Source of the DNA: an uncultured Alphaproteobacteria bacterium
GTDB taxonomy: Bacteria; Pseudomonadota; Alphaproteobacteria; Rs-D84
Direction: 5' to 3'
NCBI GenBank assembly: GCA_934276735.1
Contig: CAKQTG010000002.1
Coordinates: 270,638 to 334,637 of the forward strand
DNA: 64,000 bases
The notes beneath the pieces are model-generated. The model searched no databases, had not been told where the DNA came from, and worked only from the letters and a program-made list of their open reading frames with translations. Position 1 is the stretch's first letter; the number at the start of each line of letters is the position of its first letter. Below are positions 4,080 through 55,902 of the stretch, one piece after another. A program made the translations under genes and the position numbers.

Positions 4080-4712
4080 CTAAATTGCAAGGATTTTCAG
4101 CAACGCGTCCGCGGCGTTTATACTGGCCACCTTTTTAGATGACCCGGTGGCGTCCGCGGTGTGACCCAATGCCGTCACACGCACATGGAAAACCGGACTG
4201 TGCGATGCGCCCGTCTGTTCCAAGAATTCATATACCGGCAATGCACCATCGCCACGTTTCTGGACCAGTTCCTGTAATGCGGTTTTGGCATCTTTGGGTG
4301 CGGTGGCATCGGCCGCCGCCAATTCGCGCCAGAACGATATTATCACCGCGCGCGCCGCATCAAACCCGCCATCGATAAAGATTGCACCGAAAATCGCCTC
4401 CATCGCGTTAGCCATGATATGACGGATACGACCGCCGGTCATATGTCCGTGCCGAATATGCGACGCCAGTTTCAATTTATCAGCAACCGACGCCAGTGTT
4501 TCTGTGGATACCAGCATTGCATGGCGACGCGCCAGTTCGCCTTCGGCCTCGGCCGGGTACATTTCATACAGCAATGCCGCCACCGTCAGTCCCAGCACAC
4601 GGTCCCCAATGAATTCCAGGCGTTCATTATTATGCGCCCCATCGGCCCCCGACTGGGTCAGTGCCAAATCCAATAATTCCGGATTCTTAAACGTGTAATT
4701 CAGTTTTTCCAA
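4080..4712 (-). CDS. rnc: ribonuclease III
   Basis: The ERLEFIGDRVLGL signature box is present, followed by a C-terminal dsRBD-like region. Confidence 0.85.
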   Translation of the reverse strand: MEKLNYTFKNPELLDLALTQSGADGAHNNERLEFIGDRVLGLTVAALLYEMYPAEAEGELARRHAMLVSTETLASVADKLKLASHIRHGHMTGGRIRHIMANAMEAIFGAIFIDGGFDAARAVIISFWRELAAADATAPKDAKTALQELVQKRGDGALPVYEFLEQTGASHSPVFHVRVTALGHTADATGSSKKVASINAADALLKILAI

Positions 4713-5665: not shown

Positions 5666-7192
5666 ATGATTTCACTGAATTCAATTATATTTAATGGGAT
5701 GGACGCCACGCGCATTGACGTCCAGGTTCAACTGGCGTCGGGCCTGTCCAGTCCGGAATTTAATATCATTGGCCTGGCTGACCGCGCGGTCAAGGAATCA
5801 GCAGAACGTATAAAAAGCGTATTGGGGGCACTGAACATAACAATGCCACCGAAAAGATTGACTGTAAACCTGTCGCCAGCAGACGTGGAAAAGACTGGCG
5901 CACATTTTGACCTGCCGATACTGTGCGGGATATTGTGCGCACTAGGTATTTTGCCCGAAGATAAACTGTCTCATTACCTGATATTGGGCGAAGTTGGCCT
6001 GAACGGCACAATCGTTCGCACCGATGGCGTTTTACCCGCCAGTGTGTGGGCGCGCCGCAATGGCCTGGGCGTGATTTGCCCCGCGCCCCAGGGGACCGAG
6101 GCCCGCCTGTCCGGGCATGCCGATATTTTGGCACCGGGGCACGTGTTGGAATTGATAAATCACTTTAATGGGACAAATGTCCTGTCTGCGCCCGACGCCG
6201 CACCCAATTATGCGCCCACCACCACATATGGCGACATGTCCGAGGTACACGGCCAAGCCGCCGCAAAACGCGCACTGGAAATCGCCGCGGCTGGTGGTCA
6301 CGCAATGCTGATGGTTGGGCCACCGGGGTCGGGAAAAACAATGCTGGCGTCACGATTGCCAGGAATTATGCCGGAAATGACCGCCGATGAAATTCTGGAA
6401 ACATCAATAATATATTCTATTGCTGGACTGTTGGGGACGCGCGGGCTGATTACTACGCGCCCATTTCGTAGCGTCCACCACACTGCGTCCCAGGTTGCAC
6501 TGGCAGGTGGTGGCGCAAACGCACGTCCTGGCGAAATATCACTGGCGCATAATGGCGTGCTGTTTTTGGACGAATTGCCAGAATTTAATCGCGCGACGCT
6601 AGAAATCCTGCGACAGCCGATGGAGTCTGGAAAAATTATGATTTCGCGTGCGAAAAATACCGCAACATATCCAGCACGATTCCAGCTGATTGCAGCGATG
6701 AATCCGTGTCCATGCGGACATCTGGGCAATGCCGCCCTGTCCTGTTCGCGTGCGCCCCGTTGCGCCGAAGCATACCAGAACAAAATATCAGGGCCACTGT
6801 TAGATCGAATAGACTTGCATGTTGATGTTGACCCGGTAAATCCCTGGGAAATGAATAATACTGACAACACACCACGCGAAAACAGTGCGCAAATCCGCAC
6901 CCGTGTTGTCGCCGCATATAAACGCCAGATTGTGCGCCAGGGTTGCCAGAATGCGCATCTGGACGGCACGGCATTGGACGCGGCGGCGACACTGGCACCA
7001 GAACTGCAAAACTTTTTAAACACTGCCGCAGAAAAGATGGGAATGTCGGCACGCGGATATAACCGCGTTCGTCGCATTGCACGTACAATTGCCGATTTGG
7101 CCGGACGCAACGAAATTGAAATGGGTGACATTGCCGAGGCGTTATCATACCGCCCCATCAATCGCGGAAAATATGGTGCAAACATTAAGTGA
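5666..7192 (+). CDS. YifB/ComM family Mg-chelatase-like AAA+ ATPase
   Basis: Walker A is GPPGSGKT and Walker B is LFLDELPEF. A zinc-finger-like CPCG motif is present. Confidence 0.8.
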   Translation: MISLNSIIFNGMDATRIDVQVQLASGLSSPEFNIIGLADRAVKESAERIKSVLGALNITMPPKRLTVNLSPADVEKTGAHFDLPILCGILCALGILPEDKLSHYLILGEVGLNGTIVRTDGVLPASVWARRNGLGVICPAPQGTEARLSGHADILAPGHVLELINHFNGTNVLSAPDAAPNYAPTTTYGDMSEVHGQAAAKRALEIAAAGGHAMLMVGPPGSGKTMLASRLPGIMPEMTADEILETSIIYSIAGLLGTRGLITTRPFRSVHHTASQVALAGGGANARPGEISLAHNGVLFLDELPEFNRATLEILRQPMESGKIMISRAKNTATYPARFQLIAAMNPCPCGHLGNAALSCSRAPRCAEAYQNKISGPLLDRIDLHVDVDPVNPWEMNNTDNTPRENSAQIRTRVVAAYKRQIVRQGCQNAHLDGTALDAAATLAPELQNFLNTAAEKMGMSARGYNRVRRIARTIADLAGRNEIEMGDIAEALSYRPINRGKYGANIK

Positions 7193-7232
7193 GTAGTGAT
7201 AGAGTGACAAAGTGATAGAGTGATAAAGTGAA
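7188..7232. repeat. left inverted-repeat arm built of iterated GTGATA(R)A units
   Basis: agtgagtagtgatagagtgacaaagtgatagagtgataaagtg pairs with the reverse complement of 7592-7628. Confidence 0.6.
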
Positions 7233-7593
7233 AGAAAGCGTTCTGAAAATTAAATCCGAATTGTTTGCAGACAGAATTGTCAGGTTATTCAAATATCTGC
7301 AAACAACGCATTCCGAATTTGTGTTATCAAAACAAATTTTACGTTCTGGGACCAGCATGGGCGCCAATGTATCAGAGGCTGCTTTTGCCGCATCAAAAAA
7401 AGATTTTTTAGCAAAAATGATTATTGCAACCAAAGAATACAATGAAACTATTTTCTGGTTGCAAAGGTTAAAAAATGCACATTATTTGTCAGACGAACAA
7501 TTTACATCAATACATAATGATTGTCTAGAACTGGGACGTTTGCTGATGGCCACAACGCGCACGACCAAGGCATCAATATTATCAGACAAATAA
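7228..7593 (+). CDS. four-helix-bundle protein of the 23S rRNA intervening-sequence protein family
   Basis: The sequence LQTTHSEFVLSKQILRSGTSMGANVSEA...ETIFWLQ is typical of the four-helix-bundle/IVS protein family. The GTG start lies inside the repeat arm. Confidence 0.65.
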   Translation: MKESVLKIKSELFADRIVRLFKYLQTTHSEFVLSKQILRSGTSMGANVSEAAFAASKKDFLAKMIIATKEYNETIFWLQRLKNAHYLSDEQFTSIHNDCLELGRLLMATTRTTKASILSDK

Positions 7594-7628
7594 CTTTATC
7601 ACTAAATCACTTTATCACTTACTCACTA
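7592..7628. repeat. right inverted-repeat arm
   Basis: cactttatcactaaatcactttatcacttactcact is the reverse complement of the iterated left-arm motif. A bidirectional terminator hairpin follows at 7629-7660. Confidence 0.6.
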
Positions 7629-7652
7629 AAAAATGGGGCATCGCCCCATTTT

Positions 7653-8618
7653 TTAAAATTCGAATCGCAGGCCCAACATTATGTTGGTATATATTAAATT
7701 CTTGGCACTGAACCAATCGCGATGCTTGGTATCATCAGAATTTGTCAGTTGCCATTCAACCTTGGGGATATACATGGCGCGAATGCCAAAGTCCAAAAAT
7801 GTGTTTTCTGCCAATCCATATGACACACCGACCGCCGCCAATGCCGCAACCATAGAATTGCTTTTTTCGGCGCGATAGAATTGGAACACGCCATTATCAT
7901 CAGGTGTGCTGAAATCCTGTAACGTATACACCCCCGACAGGTCGCCATACGGATCCGACAGGTTCAGGACCGTCTGGACATCTGCATATCCAATACCAAA
8001 ACCAACGTATGGGATTACCGTCTGTAACGGTTTCTGCAACCCGTCAAAGAAATCATAGAACGCCATCGCACTGATGACATCGGTCGTTATGTCCGATTGG
8101 ACCGCGCCACTGCTGACAACAACAGGGTCGGTATACGCGCCATCAAACAGGGTTGTTTCACCCTCTAAGAAAGGCGAGTGGTTATATTCACTCTTGCTGA
8201 CGTGATCCCAGCCCACTTCTAATCGCCACTGGGGTCGATTTGGCAATGTCCAACCAACCGATGCACCGGCCGCAAATGCAAATGCGTCCAATTTATCGTC
8301 ACGGACCGGCAATTCACCCAGGTTTGCATACCCCGCAAATGTATAACCACTGCACCCGCCGGCGCGAACGCATATAATTTCAGGGAACGGCGCACCGCCA
8401 GATTCCATATAATACGCCGGGGTCAAATCACCCACGTCATTTTGAATTTTTGCCGTGCCGAACGACATGCCACCACGCACTGAAATAACAAAGCGCGAGC
8501 CATCATCACTGAACCAGCCATCGCCGATATATTCGCCATCATATTGCCAATTTGCATGGGCCGCACTTCCAAATAATGCGACGAAAATAGGTAACAAAAA
8601 TAAAAATCTTTTTCTCAT
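7653..8618 (-). CDS. outer-membrane beta-barrel protein
   Basis: The signal peptide is MRKRFLFLLPIFVALFGSAAHA. The protein has amphipathic beta-strand character and a C-terminal ...LGLRFEF ending in aromatic Phe. Confidence 0.55.
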   Translation of the reverse strand: MRKRFLFLLPIFVALFGSAAHANWQYDGEYIGDGWFSDDGSRFVISVRGGMSFGTAKIQNDVGDLTPAYYMESGGAPFPEIICVRAGGCSGYTFAGYANLGELPVRDDKLDAFAFAAGASVGWTLPNRPQWRLEVGWDHVSKSEYNHSPFLEGETTLFDGAYTDPVVVSSGAVQSDITTDVISAMAFYDFFDGLQKPLQTVIPYVGFGIGYADVQTVLNLSDPYGDLSGVYTLQDFSTPDDNGVFQFYRAEKSNSMVAALAAVGVSYGLAENTFLDFGIRAMYIPKVEWQLTNSDDTKHRDWFSAKNLIYTNIMLGLRFEF

Positions 8619-8663: not shown

Positions 8664-10463
8664 TTATTTAGAAATAAATCCACCAGACTGCATCTTCCAC
8701 AGGCGGGCATACACGCCACCGCGACGCAACAATTGGTTGTGGGTTCCCTGCTCTATAATCTGGCCATGGTTGATTACGATAATCCTGTTCATATTGCGCA
8801 ATGTTGACAGACGGTGCGCAATTGCGATTGTCGTGCGCCCCGCCGACAGGCGTTCAAATGACGACTGGATTGAAACCTCGGTTTCACTGTCCAGGGCGGA
8901 CGTTGCCTCGTCCAGGACCAAAATCGGGGCATCTTTCAGAAACGCGCGAGCGATTGCGATACGCTGACGCTGGCCGCCGGACATACGCATACCGCGGTCG
9001 CCAACCATTGTGTCGTATTTGCTTTCGGTCGACATGATGAAATTGTCGGCCTGGGCCGCGCGGGCGGCAGTGCGTATTTCGGCATCGGTCGCATTGGTGC
9101 GGCCATACGCGATATTTTCACCAATCGTGCGGTTAAACATCGTCGGTTCCTGGGGGATAAATGCGATTGCCCGACGTAAAGAATCCTGGGTCACGTCACG
9201 AATATTCTGGCCATCAATCAAGATTTCGCCCTGGGTCGGTTCATAAAATCGCAATAACAAATTCACCAGTGTTGTTTTGCCCGCGCCCGAGCCCCCAACC
9301 AGCCCAACGCGTTCGCCGCTGTTTATCGTCAGGTTTAAATTATGCAGCACCCATTTACGTTTATACTTAAACGACACATTGCGGAATTCAATACGCCCAC
9401 AACGCACATGCAATTCGTGCGCATTTGGCGCGTCGGTGATTTCCAGTGGCGCACTGAGTTCTTCGTATGCCTTTTGCGCACTGCCCACTTTTTCAACAAT
9501 CTGGGGGATTTGGTCAACGATACGCGCGATTGTGCCCATCACGCTGAAAAACACCGATGTTGTGAACACGATTTCAGAAACCAATAATTTCCCATGCATA
9601 AACAGCCATACGCACAACAACATCGTTGCGCCAAACGCGACGTCCCACACGAAATTAGGCACCGCCCAGAAAAACCGCTGGACAAAGTAAGAGTGCATAT
9701 GATCCCTGACCCGTTGACGACGTGGGGCAGCCAAATACTGACGTTCGGCGTTTGCGCCGGCAAACAATTTCACCACTGAATAATTGGCCAAACTGTCCAC
9801 CAATTTACCGGCCAGGTGACTGCGCGATTCACTGGCGGTCTTGGACGCACGGTTCATTGGACGTATCAGCAAAATTCCATACACAATACGAAACACGAAC
9901 ACAAACGCAAATATTATCGCAACATATGCGTTCATGCCCATAATCAATCCAACATTTACCAAAATAACCGCGACGGCACCGAATATTTCCATAAAATTCA
10001 GAATCACCGTAAACCCATCGGCAACAAAATTTATCTGGGTATTTAATTTACCCGCCATGCGCCCGGACCAGAACGACATAGACTGGTGCTGGATATAATC
10101 CGACAGAACATCGGATACCTGGTTATCAATCTTGGGCTGCCAATGACCGCGCGCCCACGCACGCAAAACCGTGCACACGTCCAGTAAAATCAACGTTGAT
10201 GCGATTATGGCAATCGTCGGTAAAGCAAAACGGACAAACGATACGCCATCGGGCGGTGTCTGTTCAAACAGCGCGATAAACATACGCTGGAAATTCGGGA
10301 ACAGAACCCCTTCGGACATAACGGCCAGGAACAGCAATCCCCACACCAACAACGCAGCCCAGTGACCACGTGCGGCATATTTTATATAAAACTTCCATAA
10401 CGATTTTGGTAAATTTTGTGACATAGCTTGCCCAATGTTATAAGACAAATGGCGCAAAATCAA
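8664..10463 (-). CDS. ABC transporter permease/ATP-binding protein, MsbA-like exporter
   Basis: A six-TM domain is fused to an NBD with Walker A GGSGAGKT, the signature LSGGQRQR and Walker B ILVLDEATSALD. An alternative start is at 10424 (MSQNLPK). Confidence 0.8.
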   Translation of the reverse strand: MILRHLSYNIGQAMSQNLPKSLWKFYIKYAARGHWAALLVWGLLFLAVMSEGVLFPNFQRMFIALFEQTPPDGVSFVRFALPTIAIIASTLILLDVCTVLRAWARGHWQPKIDNQVSDVLSDYIQHQSMSFWSGRMAGKLNTQINFVADGFTVILNFMEIFGAVAVILVNVGLIMGMNAYVAIIFAFVFVFRIVYGILLIRPMNRASKTASESRSHLAGKLVDSLANYSVVKLFAGANAERQYLAAPRRQRVRDHMHSYFVQRFFWAVPNFVWDVAFGATMLLCVWLFMHGKLLVSEIVFTTSVFFSVMGTIARIVDQIPQIVEKVGSAQKAYEELSAPLEITDAPNAHELHVRCGRIEFRNVSFKYKRKWVLHNLNLTINSGERVGLVGGSGAGKTTLVNLLLRFYEPTQGEILIDGQNIRDVTQDSLRRAIAFIPQEPTMFNRTIGENIAYGRTNATDAEIRTAARAAQADNFIMSTESKYDTMVGDRGMRMSGGQRQRIAIARAFLKDAPILVLDEATSALDSETEVSIQSSFERLSAGRTTIAIAHRLSTLRNMNRIIVINHGQIIEQGTHNQLLRRGGVYARLWKMQSGGFISK

Positions 10464-48299: not shown

Positions 48300-48880
48300 C
48301 CCCGTCCGGGGCGGTCGTCTTTTTTCCAGAGAGCAGAGAGCAATGAAAGAGTCCGCATTCGCGGACAACTCTAATGACCTGGATTCTGGGGTCAAGCCCC
48401 AGAATGACAAAGGCTGGACATAGATTTTATTTTATGAACATTGTTCACTTTTATATCGCAAGCCTTTTCTTAGGTGTCATTCTGGGGCTTGACCCCAGAA
48501 TCCAGGTGATAATGTCGCACACAGTGCGTGCTTATTGTCATTCCTGCGCAGGCAGGAATAGGGTCCAGGCAGTGCGAGCGATGCGAGCCGTGTCCGAGCA
48601 ATTGCGGATTTTATTATTGGTGACTAATTGCCGAATTACGACCAACCAAGGGAACACAATGGACCCCGGCCTGCACCGGGGTGACGCTGGTGTGTGGTTG
48701 GGCGCCATATTTTACGAACATTGTGCAACAATGAGCAAAAGTAATTTCTTAGGCCCTATTCCTGCCTGCGCAGGAATGACAAGTTTTTAAGTTCTCTATT
48801 CTAAAACTAAATCACTTTATCACTCTGTCACTTACTCACTTTATCATTGCTCTCTGCGCATTGCTCTCTGTAATTTGTAA
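48300..48880. repeat. composite nested inverted-repeat (MITE-like) element
   Basis: The outer pair is cagagagcagagagcaatg (48318) against cattgctctctg (48845-48870). Palindromes ttctggggtcaagccccagaa occur at 48383 and 48479. The pair gtcattcctgcgcaggcaggaatagggtc (48538) and ggccctattcctgcctgcgcaggaatgac (48749) is also inverted. The right end carries the cactttatcac motif of the 7.2 kb cassette. Confidence 0.6.
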
Positions 48881-52342: not shown

Positions 52343-53935
52343 ATGTTACGTTACATGCGCCGTGTTTTATCGGCAATTTGTTGTGTTGCATTGATTATGG
52401 CGATGACAATCATTACATCGCCCGTGCCAGCAACCGCCGCGTCACCATCTGAACCAGTGACATCTGTCACGACCAGCCCCGCTGTCAATGTGAACTATGT
52501 TCACGGTGCAATAAATTCATATTGGGGGATTGATATACCGCCCAACGCCGCCATCTCTGACACCAAGAACGCCGTAAACATGAAATACTTGCTGGGCATG
52601 GTGGACATCGCGAATGCGCGCCTGGGGACAACAACATCATATGGCACGGGCGAATATGCAACGTCTGGTGCGGCATCACAGAACACGGCCAATACCGCAA
52701 TAAAAACACTGATACGGCACAGTTATCCATTTACAATAACGACCACATCAACAAACAGTTTTTCGTTTAATATCAGTGCCAGCGGCCTGTTCTATATTGA
52801 CTGGGGCGACGGCACCAAAATACAGCAAATCGTCAAAACCGATACCAATCCCCAAACAATCAGCCACACATACACGTCAACCGGTGCGCATACGATAAAA
52901 ATGGGCGGCCGTGCGACCGGGTATTCTGCGTCGGCGGCAATCAGTTTTGCCCAAAACACCATGCTGGCCAAAATCAGTGGCAGTCTGGGGCGCATATTCA
53001 TAACCCTGGGTGACGGCACACAGCCCAGTTTTTCGTCGGCATTTATGGGTTGCACCAATTTATCTGGCAGCATACCGGCCGAATTATTCGCAGGTATATC
53101 GGGCGCGCCCCGCACATCTATGTTCGAAGATACGTTTAACGGGTGCGTGGGCCTGACTGGGGCGATTCCATCGGGGCTGTTTTCTGGCATAACCGGCGCA
53201 CCAGCGACATTGATGTTCAAGCATACTTTCTATGGCTGCACGGGATTGACCAGTATTCCGTCCGGACTGTTTGCGGGGATTTCTGGCACCCCACAGAGCA
53301 GTATGTTCAACGGCACATTTTACGGTTGCACCGGACTGCGCGGGGCGGTGCCATCTGGGCTGTTTTCGGGCATTACCGGCGCGCCAGCATACGCAATGTT
53401 TCACGAAACGTTTTATGGATGTTCGGGTCTGACATCAATTCCAGCCAACCTGTTTGCAAGGGTATCGGGCGCACCCGCAGGATTGATGTTTAAAAATACT
53501 TTTTATGGATGTAGTGGCCTGACCAGTATCCCGTCGGGACTCTTTGCCGGCATCAAAGGTGCACCCGCCAGCAGTATGTTTAACAGCACATTTGCAAATT
53601 GCACGGGGCTGACCAGTATTCCATCGGGATTATTTGCCAGCGTCAACGGTGCGGCCGCCAGTGCGATGTATTACAGCACGTTTTCAGGGTGCACGAAACT
53701 CTCGGGTCAAATACCCGTGGGCGTGTTCGGCACCCTGTCGGGGTCCCCGGCCAGTTTGATGTTCAAACAGACATTTTCTGGGTGCAGTGGTCTGACCGGG
53801 CCATCGGCGCGCAATCCAAATGGCACATATTTGTATAATGTATTTTCCAGCGCAACCGCATCGCACGTTGGCTCGATGTATTACGGGGTCAAGAGCCTGT
53901 CTGACTATTCATCCATCCCCACCGCATGGAAATAG
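52343..53935 (+). CDS. BspA-type leucine-rich-repeat surface protein
   Basis: There are about twelve tandem ~23 aa repeats of the form F(Y/N)GCTGLTSIPSGLF(A/S)GI(S/T)GAP.S.MF..TF, fitting the LRR_5/BspA pattern. The N-terminus is hydrophobic. Confidence 0.6.
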   Translation: MLRYMRRVLSAICCVALIMAMTIITSPVPATAASPSEPVTSVTTSPAVNVNYVHGAINSYWGIDIPPNAAISDTKNAVNMKYLLGMVDIANARLGTTTSYGTGEYATSGAASQNTANTAIKTLIRHSYPFTITTTSTNSFSFNISASGLFYIDWGDGTKIQQIVKTDTNPQTISHTYTSTGAHTIKMGGRATGYSASAAISFAQNTMLAKISGSLGRIFITLGDGTQPSFSSAFMGCTNLSGSIPAELFAGISGAPRTSMFEDTFNGCVGLTGAIPSGLFSGITGAPATLMFKHTFYGCTGLTSIPSGLFAGISGTPQSSMFNGTFYGCTGLRGAVPSGLFSGITGAPAYAMFHETFYGCSGLTSIPANLFARVSGAPAGLMFKNTFYGCSGLTSIPSGLFAGIKGAPASSMFNSTFANCTGLTSIPSGLFASVNGAAASAMYYSTFSGCTKLSGQIPVGVFGTLSGSPASLMFKQTFSGCSGLTGPSARNPNGTYLYNVFSSATASHVGSMYYGVKSLSDYSSIPTAWK

Positions 53936-55143: not shown

Positions 55144-55902
55144 ATGTTTAAATTCCTGAAAAAGAAAACCGCACCAGTCACAGAAACCGCCAAAATTCCC
55201 CAGCATATCGCATTTATTTGCGATGGTAATCGCCGCTGGGCCGAGGCACGCGGATTGCCACCATTGATGGGTCACAAGGCTGGTATTTCTAACTTTGAAA
55301 ACCTGGTTGACTGGTATATCGCGCGTGGCGTGTCGACTGTTACGTTCTTTCTGTTTTCAACCGAAAACTGGAACAGAACCAAGGAAGAAGTCGATTTCTT
55401 GATGGATTTGTTCTATACCGAATTGCACAAAAATATGAAACATGCGTTGGAAAAAAATCTGCGCTATCGTGTGATTGGGTCGCGGGATCGCCTGCCAAAA
55501 CGGTTGGCAAATATGTGCGATAAACTGGAACAGGCGTCGGCCGAAAACACCGGCGGAACGGTTGTGTTTGCACTGAACTATGGTGGCCAAGACGAAATCG
55601 TTGCCGCGGTCAATGCCGCAATTGAAAACGGTGAACCGGTTACGCGCGAAACATTTGAAACGTTCCTGGACACGGGCGAATTGTTGCCGATTGATTTGAT
55701 GGTCCGCACCAGCAATGAATTCAGAATTTCTAATTTCTTGTTATGGAAATTGGCATATGCCGAATTGATGTTCGTCCCAGAACACTGGCCTGATTTGGTC
55801 AAAGACGAAAAAATGTGGCAACGCACATTGGACGAATACGCACACCGCAATCGCAGATTTGGTGGCGGGAAAAAGGCAAACTATTCCGGCAAGAAAAAAT
55901 AA
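55144..55902 (+). CDS. uppS: di-trans,poly-cis-undecaprenyl-diphosphate synthase
   Basis: HIAFICDGNRRWA is present, and the C-terminal RISNFLLWKLAYAEL is RFGG-like. Confidence 0.85.
   Translation: MFKFLKKKTAPVTETAKIPQHIAFICDGNRRWAEARGLPPLMGHKAGISNFENLVDWYIARGVSTVTFFLFSTENWNRTKEEVDFLMDLFYTELHKNMKHALEKNLRYRVIGSRDRLPKRLANMCDKLEQASAENTGGTVVFALNYGGQDEIVAAVNAAIENGEPVTRETFETFLDTGELLPIDLMVRTSNEFRISNFLLWKLAYAELMFVPEHWPDLVKDEKMWQRTLDEYAHRNRRFGGGKKANYSGKKK

Follow-up and report, generated by a model that had tools for sequence, protein, structure and literature searches.

Which kind of element is a gene of the 23S rRNA intervening sequence (IVS) protein family when it lies behind a protein-coding gene, between inverted repeats of its own? 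This question was raised by a locus in contig CAKQTG010000002.1 of an uncultured Alphaproteobacteria bacterium, of which a stretch of 64,000 nucleotides (the window) was analysed. Here a small open reading frame (ORF) lies directly downstream of yifB and is enclosed by two arrays of octamers in inverted orientation; the ORF and its arrays are together called the cassette. Knowledge of IVS elements and of their S23p ORFs goes back to the early 1990s, and neither their origin nor the function of the protein is understood (PMC4990558). We consider it probable that the cassette is an IVS-type element in an mRNA, co-transcribed with yifB, the stem of which is a substrate of RNase III.

The 5′ arm of the cassette (AGTGAGT AGTGATAG AGTGACAA AGTGATAG AGTGATAA AGTG) consists of five units and a sixth AGTG core, and the units are composed of an A-R-T-K core followed by 3–4 variable bases. 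The 3′ arm, read as the reverse complement, is AGTGAGTA AGTGATAA AGTGATTT AGTGATAA AGTT. Both arms overlap with coding sequence: the yifB stop TGA (7190–7192) lies inside the first unit of the 5′ arm, the GTG start of the ORF (7228) is part of the last AGTG core, as the first-pass annotation of the window had stated, and the stop TAA (7591–7593) is located within the first, degenerate unit of the 3′ array. The same annotation had described the gene as bracketed by imperfect inverted repeats of AGTGATAA-like units, and a repeat finder indeed detected an inverted repeat of 36 nt, 83% complementary, with the arms 363 nt apart, while Tandem Repeats Finder (TRF) reported period 8 (also 16) in both arms. 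The arm sequences of the annotation were correct except for a two-letter slip in the right arm, where 'cactttatcac...' had been written for 'aactttatcac...'. The 12-mer AGTGATAAAGTG (with at most 2 mismatches) had 17 matches in the window where 4.0 ± 2.0 were expected, an excess of about five-fold; 0 of 100 shuffles reached this count. Of the 17 matches, 12 belong to the arms and to a single other site, 48813–48848.

The region 7180–7665 was folded at minimum free energy. Positions 7188–7221 paired with 7593–7627 in a stem of 31 bp, with two G-U pairs, one bulge and one 3 × 3 internal loop, and the mean pair probability across this stem was 0.95. The long stem formerly proposed was thus recovered, at a length of 31–36 bp and not the ~40 bp given for it. 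The arm duplex had a ΔG of −43 kcal/mol, the whole region a z-score of −8.4, and the stems of orthologues ranged from −32 to −46 kcal/mol. Either arm alone was unstructured (ΔG ~0); the 5′ arm is nearly free of C and the 3′ arm is free of G, therefore the arms pair only with each other. The loop (7222–7592) comprises the ORF with a 6-nt leader, so that the stem encloses the ORF almost exactly and the ribosome-binding region upstream of the GTG is located inside the stem. The terminal inverted repeats that form a long enclosing stem in IVS elements are therefore present in the cassette, and so are the two prerequisites of RNase III processing, a double-stranded RNA (dsRNA) stem of >20 bp and a host rnc gene, the latter 2.5 kb from the cassette. 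The grounds on which the annotation would have withdrawn its proposal, unpaired arms and a motif occurring nowhere else, were examined as well: the arms pair and the motif recurs.

The 121-aa product matched PF05635 with 81.7 bits (cut-off 33.8, E 5e-23), TIGR02436 with 92.6 bits (cut-off 24, E 2e-26) and, over residues 1–114, the solved Bacteroides protein of PDB entry 2RLD (E 2.8e-31), which confirmed its assignment to the 23S IVS protein family. The family motif RxxxSxxxNxxE reported in PMC3936711 is present as R39, S43, N47 and E50; in alignment A1, E50 is invariant and R39 almost invariant, S43 and N47 not being listed there. Compared with the 90%-identical orthologue of locus L007 (dS 0.84), the ratio of nonsynonymous to synonymous substitutions (dN/dS) was 0.06, and it was 0.062 for yifB in the same pair. 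By this measure the four-helix-bundle protein is under strong purifying selection; since its dN/dS resembles that of yifB, the protein appears to be functional and the ORF no decaying passenger. The PADLOC defence-system models gave no match to the product at E ≤ 0.1, and an exact-protein look-up with the 121-aa sequence returned no record.

The cassette was kept at the yifB site in the same-species strains L001–L006 and L092–L094 and in the sister lineage L007. Among strains, the yifB stop and the start codon were 27, 35 or 43 nt apart, so that the 5′ array differs by whole 8-nt units. Between the window and L007 the AGTGA core was unchanged in every unit, and it was the variable bases that were altered. 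Other states of the site were found in further relatives. L107 and L108 (YifB identity 80–81%) have an empty site with the terminator only. In L103 and L106 (87%) an ORF-less mini-element of ~90 nt was found, consisting of (AGTTCAA)x4, ATGAATAAAG, a GC hairpin, TTTGAACTTTGAA and the terminator, and L104 and L105 (87%) retain 1.5 units after a microhomology deletion. L102 (95%) carries another ORF-less mini-element, in which CAGAGAG units form the left side and a single TTTATCACT unit the right, followed by the same terminator as in the window. The mini-element of L103 folds to a 15-bp stem, and over 30 nt its left arm has the same sequence as that of the full cassette L016, which sits at another locus in a gut alphaproteobacterial metagenome-assembled genome. 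L008 holds a 60%-identical homologue in another context, after a RodZ-like gene, with AGTGATAA-type arms on both sides.

A probable decayed second cassette was found within the window. Its left end is (CAGAGAG)x2-CAATG (48327–48345) and runs into ATGAAAGAGTCC, which encodes M-K-E-S, the N-terminus of the window four-helix-bundle gene. At 48801–48848 it has 5–6 reverse-complement AGTGATAA units near-identical to 7590–7628, and CATTGCTCTCTG, present twice at 48845–48870, is complementary to its left end. No four-helix-bundle coding sequence was left in this copy by tblastn. The first-pass annotation had suggested a search of the genome for further copies of the arm motif; the apparent second cassette holds such a copy, and L008 carries arms of this type in another context. 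Empty, mini and full states at one site, the homologue L008, the arm identity with L016 and the second copy together lead to the conclusion that, as read from the compared loci, the element comes and goes in ORF-bearing and ORF-less forms and that its arms travel with it. The three states of the site between yifB and the convergent gene also support the earlier proposal of a mobile or RNA-processed cassette outside rRNA. Comparison of the filled, mini and empty sites, which are 5–20% diverged, revealed no recognisable target-site duplication.

Some further features of these sites were recorded. YifB ends in ...GANIK* where the ORF cassette is present (window 7181–7192) and in ...GAKL*, ...GAKI* or ...GAK* in L102–L108, where it is not. 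From this comparison, the insertion seems to have displaced the native yifB stop, the first arm unit supplying a new one. The short metagenome contigs L003–L006 end inside the 3′ arm (...ATCACTTTA), and assembly breaks at the arrays may be caused by repeat copies or by heterogeneity in unit number. The interior of the second copy is occupied by two palindromic elements resembling miniature inverted-repeat transposable elements (MITEs), at 48374–48510 and 48535–48782; one is of the ATTCTGGGGTCAAGCCCCAGAAT type (36-nt arms, 97% complementary) and the other of the GTCATTCCTGCGCAGGCAGGAAT type (29-nt arms, 100% complementary), and neither motif type occurred elsewhere in the 64 kb.

For the family-wide design, 80 genome loci of relatives with 47–60% identity were sampled from Bacteroidota, Clostridia, Cyanobacteria, Acidobacteriota, Verrucomicrobiota, Chlorobiota and several proteobacterial classes. 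At each locus, the 110 nt before the gene were aligned with the reverse-complemented 110 nt that follow it, and displaced flanks from these loci served as control. The median score was 36 against 14 for displaced flanks, and 70 of the 80 loci exceeded the 95th percentile of the control. A period of 7 was found in 56 of 59 strong upstream arrays and in 50 of 52 downstream arrays, and comparable arrays occurred in 2% of control windows. Read in register, the core had A at 97%, A/G at 99%, T at 94% and G/T at 98%, the next three positions being nearly free; the unit held 6.0 bits in total, compared with ≤4.0 bits in column-permuted controls, and the core was present in 100 of 106 arrays against 40 expected from letter-shuffled units. 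The same pattern recurred in 25 IMG/VR loci, with protein identities as low as 30%. The window unit (AGTG plus ATAA) corresponds to the family A-R-T-K core with one additional spacer base, and L114 of IMG/VR is a further 8-nt case.

The number of units also had a preferred value. Chains of cores spaced by exactly 7 nt peaked upstream at five units, with 26 loci having five and one having six, and downstream at 4–5 units, while controls gave ~1; many loci have five units in both arms. The order of units was mirrored between the arms, weakly but consistently (Stouffer Z = 2.6). No preferred phase of the array relative to the start codon was found across loci, and the idea of arrays continuing in register up to the start codon was rejected for this reason. 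It was also considered that a period not divisible by three places stop codons in all three frames; this was rejected as a general explanation, since common units such as AATTACG, AGTTCAA and AGTGGAG contain no stop. The window unit does have TGA and TAA and supplies the yifB stop. Longer or multiple arrays of up to ~100 nt were seen in the flanks of L027, L032, L036, L043, L069 and L085, sometimes with two unit types side by side or nested, which suggests adjacent or nested elements.

Whether the arms act as RNA or as DNA was judged from orientation and pairing. The upstream neighbour was co-oriented with the cassette gene in 60 of 67 loci (~90%) and the downstream neighbour in 61 of 74, and a median of 52 nt separated the upstream stop from the start of the cassette; cassettes thus sit in sense orientation within transcription units of the host, like the IVSs of rRNA. 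The arm duplex was more stable on the sense than on the antisense strand in 52 of 77 loci, with 25 the reverse (p = 0.006). Displaced coding flanks, which are GC-richer, reached duplex energies as low as the arms and are invalid as an energy control, hence the alignment-score control described above was used. In the window itself, no promoter-like site was found between yifB and the cassette ORF, and the cassette occupies the 3′ untranslated region (UTR) of yifB, upstream of a terminator hairpin common to the yifB-cassette transcript and the convergent gene; it would therefore be transcribed within the yifB message. This hairpin is a perfect one of 13 bp followed by a T-run, directly 3′ of the 3′ arm. 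As far as comparative sequence can tell, the RNA-level reading is favoured over a DNA-level one but not proven.

Taking these results together, we infer the following course of events. The yifB message would carry the cassette, the arms pairing as a dsRNA stem of ~31 bp with the four-helix-bundle ORF as its loop. Host RNase III would cut this stem, as in the ORF-carrying 23S IVSs of Coxiella and Leptospira, and the cut would set the ORF RNA free of the yifB transcript. Access to the start region, which is buried in the stem, may be controlled by the stem's formation or cleavage. Strong purifying selection on the protein suggests that it would be made and would serve the element or the host. 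The arm arrays of about five units would grow and shrink by slippage, and the element family would turn over at intergenic sites within operons.

Several points weigh against this course of events. The arms are only ~84% complementary across the family, and their mismatches show no excess of G:U (70) over A/C (74), so that the base-pair evidence for selection on the sense RNA, over DNA or either strand, is mixed. In L096, an allele of the same species, the match to the gene (2501–2849) is shortened by 14 nt and the ORF has only 91 aa. Although dN/dS is low elsewhere, this copy is frameshifted or truncated, which indicates that the protein is dispensable at least transiently. The S23p ORF of Coxiella seems untranslated and decaying, whereas the window ORF is strongly conserved. 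Finally, RNase III is not known to need a 4-nt core or a 7-nt period, and the stem model alone is insufficient to explain the arms. Since the conserved periodic core is not accounted for by RNase III, some sequence-specific factor would read the units and thereby keep the A-R-T-K core; the homopentameric four-helix-bundle protein is the natural and obvious candidate.

The closest known system is the 23S IVS of Coxiella burnetii, in which a stem of 28 bp is built by terminal inverted repeats, RNase III cuts in the middle of this stem were mapped by rapid amplification of cDNA ends, 2–3 tandem GACAGAT heptamers stand just upstream of the S23p ORF in strain-variable number, and the ORF has a poor Shine-Dalgarno sequence (PMC4990558). 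Like the ORF-containing 23S IVSs of Coxiella and Leptospira, the cassette has an S23p-family protein in the loop and a stem of ~28–31 bp; like that of Coxiella, it has strain-variable short tandem repeats right before the ORF, here the octamer array, transcription, here predicted, from a host promoter, and a Shine-Dalgarno sequence that is poor or absent. Excision by RNase III is experimentally established for the Coxiella IVS (PMC4990558), whereas the window stem is predicted from sequence and folding. The location is different: 23S IVSs replace the tetraloop of helix 9, 25 or 45, while the cassette resides in the 3′ UTR of the yifB mRNA with yifB coding sequence and the terminator as its flanks. 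At the gathering threshold Rfam gave nothing at the cassette, and only four tRNAs and no rRNA in the window. Moreover, the window unit is 8 nt long with an AGTG core in contrast to GACAGAT, and both window arms are visibly built of units.

Among other explanations, the one that survives best is that the arrays are primarily binding sites, in RNA or DNA, of the encoded homopentamer, with the ~five units of each arm matching the five subunits. Binding would yield autoregulation or a self-recognising ribonucleoprotein, the stem and the RNase III cut being secondary, and the candidate ligand would have the form (AGUGAUAA)5 or (ARUKNNN)5. This accords with a core conserved across phyla beside three free spacer bases, with AGTGA retained in every unit between the window and L007 despite a dS of 0.84, and with the sharp upstream peak at five units, many loci having five in both arms. 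Avd homologues, which belong to diversity-generating retroelements (DGRs), bind nucleic acid. The 2RLD structure has 5 chains, and Xcc0516 is a homopentamer according to the work cited in PMC4990558. However, strains of one species differ in having 4 to 6 units, 7- and 8-nt units both exist although a rigid ring is not obviously tolerant of this, the Coxiella heptamer GACAGAT lacks the core, and ORF-less mini-elements retain arms with no protein encoded in cis. We regard binding as the primary role of the arrays as a tentative possibility; it is compatible with the IVS-type explanation and the two are not exclusive.

A DNA-level mobile element of MITE or transposon type, with the arrays as terminal inverted repeats for a transposase supplied in trans and an incidental RNA stem, appears unlikely. 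Presence, absence and alternative elements at one site speak for it, as do the multiple copies, the ORF-less L103 arm identical to that of the full cassette L016, and short assemblies that break inside an arm; a transposition origin of IVSs was proposed by Burgin et al., as cited in PMC4990558. The cassette also resembles MITEs and repetitive extragenic palindromes or bacterial interspersed mosaic elements (REP-BIME), which are short, intergenic, bounded by inverted repeats, present or absent among strains, represented by ORF-less copies and often next to terminators. Unlike these, its arms are tandem arrays of 7–8-nt units with a phylum-spanning core, many copies hold a conserved non-transposase gene, and the sense orientation within operons is strong. 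No transposase was found in or near cassettes and no target-site duplication was recognised at their junctions. DNA transposition would not be expected to give ~90% co-orientation with host operons in the absence of strong selection, and arms that are lineage-specific with only a 4-nt core kept are unlike typical terminal inverted repeats.

That the arrays are simple-sequence contingency repeats, slippage of which switches or tunes the small gene or its neighbours, we hold to be quite improbable. Near-identical strains do differ by exactly one unit (27, 35 and 43 nt), and Coxiella strains likewise differ in unit number (PMC4990558). A precedent is hmw1A of Haemophilus influenzae, for which PMC12721329 describes upstream 7-nt tandem repeats of strain-variable copy number together with RNase III acting on a structured 5′ UTR. 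However, the hmw1A repeat as described there is one-sided, a long perfect simple sequence repeat with no inverted pair around the gene, whereas the present arrays are short (4–6 units) and imperfect, so that slow slippage is expected, and the matching inverted array at the other end of the gene would be left unexplained. Chance low-complexity sequence or an assembly artefact, for which only the AT-rich composition speaks, can be dismissed as practically refuted by the shuffling controls, the independent assemblies of the locus and the family-wide recurrence.

The features of the locus are collected in Table 1. The first-pass annotation had placed the gene between yifB and an outer-membrane protein (OMP) gene. 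The yifB neighbour was confirmed; the OMP label is provisional, resting only on the two terminal features given in the table, and the gene had no Pfam match. Within ~4 kb of the cassette are rnc, which encodes the host enzyme needed by the proposed mechanism, lepB, yifB, the OMP-like gene, an ATP-binding cassette (ABC) transporter gene and a penicillin-binding protein (PBP) gene. The ABC-transporter gene (8664–10463) lies between the OMP-like and PBP genes; it is present in L001 too and absent from that position in L002 and L007, so that its presence varies among close relatives. Elsewhere in the window, three AATT-core heptamers (AATTCAGAATTTCTAATTTCT) were found at 55715–55738, where the core pattern matched on both strands and tblastn detected no four-helix-bundle gene nearby. 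A 90-nt tandem repeat with 1.8 copies and 78% identity lies at 53519–53683 (TRF score 218).

Table 1. Features of the yifB locus and of the second copy (positions are those of the window).
Feature	Position	Strand	Basis or remark
RNase III gene rnc	4080..4712	-	PF14622, PF00636 and dsrm matches; outside the element
yifB/comM-type Mg-chelatase-like AAA ATPase	5666..7192	+	Mg_chelatase domains; host gene of the cassette
5′ arm, octamer array	7188..7231	+	sequence, inverted-repeat and tandem-repeat calls
Predicted long-range stem	7188..7627	+	RNA folding
Four-helix-bundle gene, 121 aa, PF05635/TIGR02436, S23p / 23S rRNA IVS protein family	7228..7593	+	profile matches
3′ arm, reverse-complement octamer array	7588..7628	+	sequence, inverted-repeat and tandem-repeat calls
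Bidirectional intrinsic-terminator hairpin (AAAAAATGGGGC ATC GCCCCATTTTTT)	7627..7655	.	13-nt arms, 100% complementary
Convergent OMP-like gene	7653..8618	-	signal-peptide-like N-terminus, C-terminal Phe
Probable decayed second cassette	48327..48875	+	left arm, right array, no coding sequence left

The cassette gene is a clear member of the stand-alone TIGR02436 four-helix-bundle proteins, such as 2RLD of B. thetaiotaomicron and Xcc0516 of Xanthomonas. Genes of this group are small, dispersed among unrelated genes and present in many copies in Bacteroidota, Clostridia, Cyanobacteria and other phyla; they are annotated as isolated genes and assigned no function, and flanking arrays are not described for them in the literature searched. 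For stand-alone genes, this literature, a limited set, mentions neither inverted heptamer arrays and their core nor a unit count, an orientation in operons or ORF-less derivatives. The pentameric four-helix-bundle fold is also homologous to that of Avd, and PF05635 is the commonest Pfam family around DGRs (PMC10053308); unlike Avd genes, the window gene has no reverse transcriptase, template repeat or variable repeat beside it, and no reverse transcriptase was called in the orthologous loci. PF05635 genes are further scattered in cas loci (PMC3936711) and occur in 16S and 23S insertions of candidate phyla radiation bacteria (bioRxiv 2024.02.27.582315), which fits promiscuous insertion into transcribed regions.

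In conclusion, the window element is best regarded as a cassette of IVS type that resides in an mRNA; with its unusual 8-nt unit, it is one instance of what appears to be a very widespread, undescribed architecture. Since relatives across many phyla have a like design, the IVSs of rRNA would seem to be a single case within a much wider class inside mRNAs. A bolder version, which we think rather unlikely, would make them the tip of a phylum-spanning class of selfish mRNA intervening sequences, in which five A-R-U-K repeats per arm are read by the pentamer that the loop encodes; excision by RNase III would be under the control of the ribonucleoprotein thus formed, which, as a relative of Avd, might also control copying into new transcribed sites, the mini-elements being non-autonomous derivatives. 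The PF05635 family is among the commonest unexplained small genes of Bacteroidota, Clostridia and Cyanobacteria and is also the family of the DGR cofactor Avd. An IVS architecture of its stand-alone genes, with a 4-nt core, a 7-nt period, preferably five units and strict sense orientation in operons, would replace the vague label 'hypothetical protein' by a defined cis-plus-trans module, the parts of which can be tested. Metagenome assembly is concerned as well, as contigs break at the arms, and so is operon biology, as an RNase III-cleavable insert would lie between the cistrons of hundreds of host operons.

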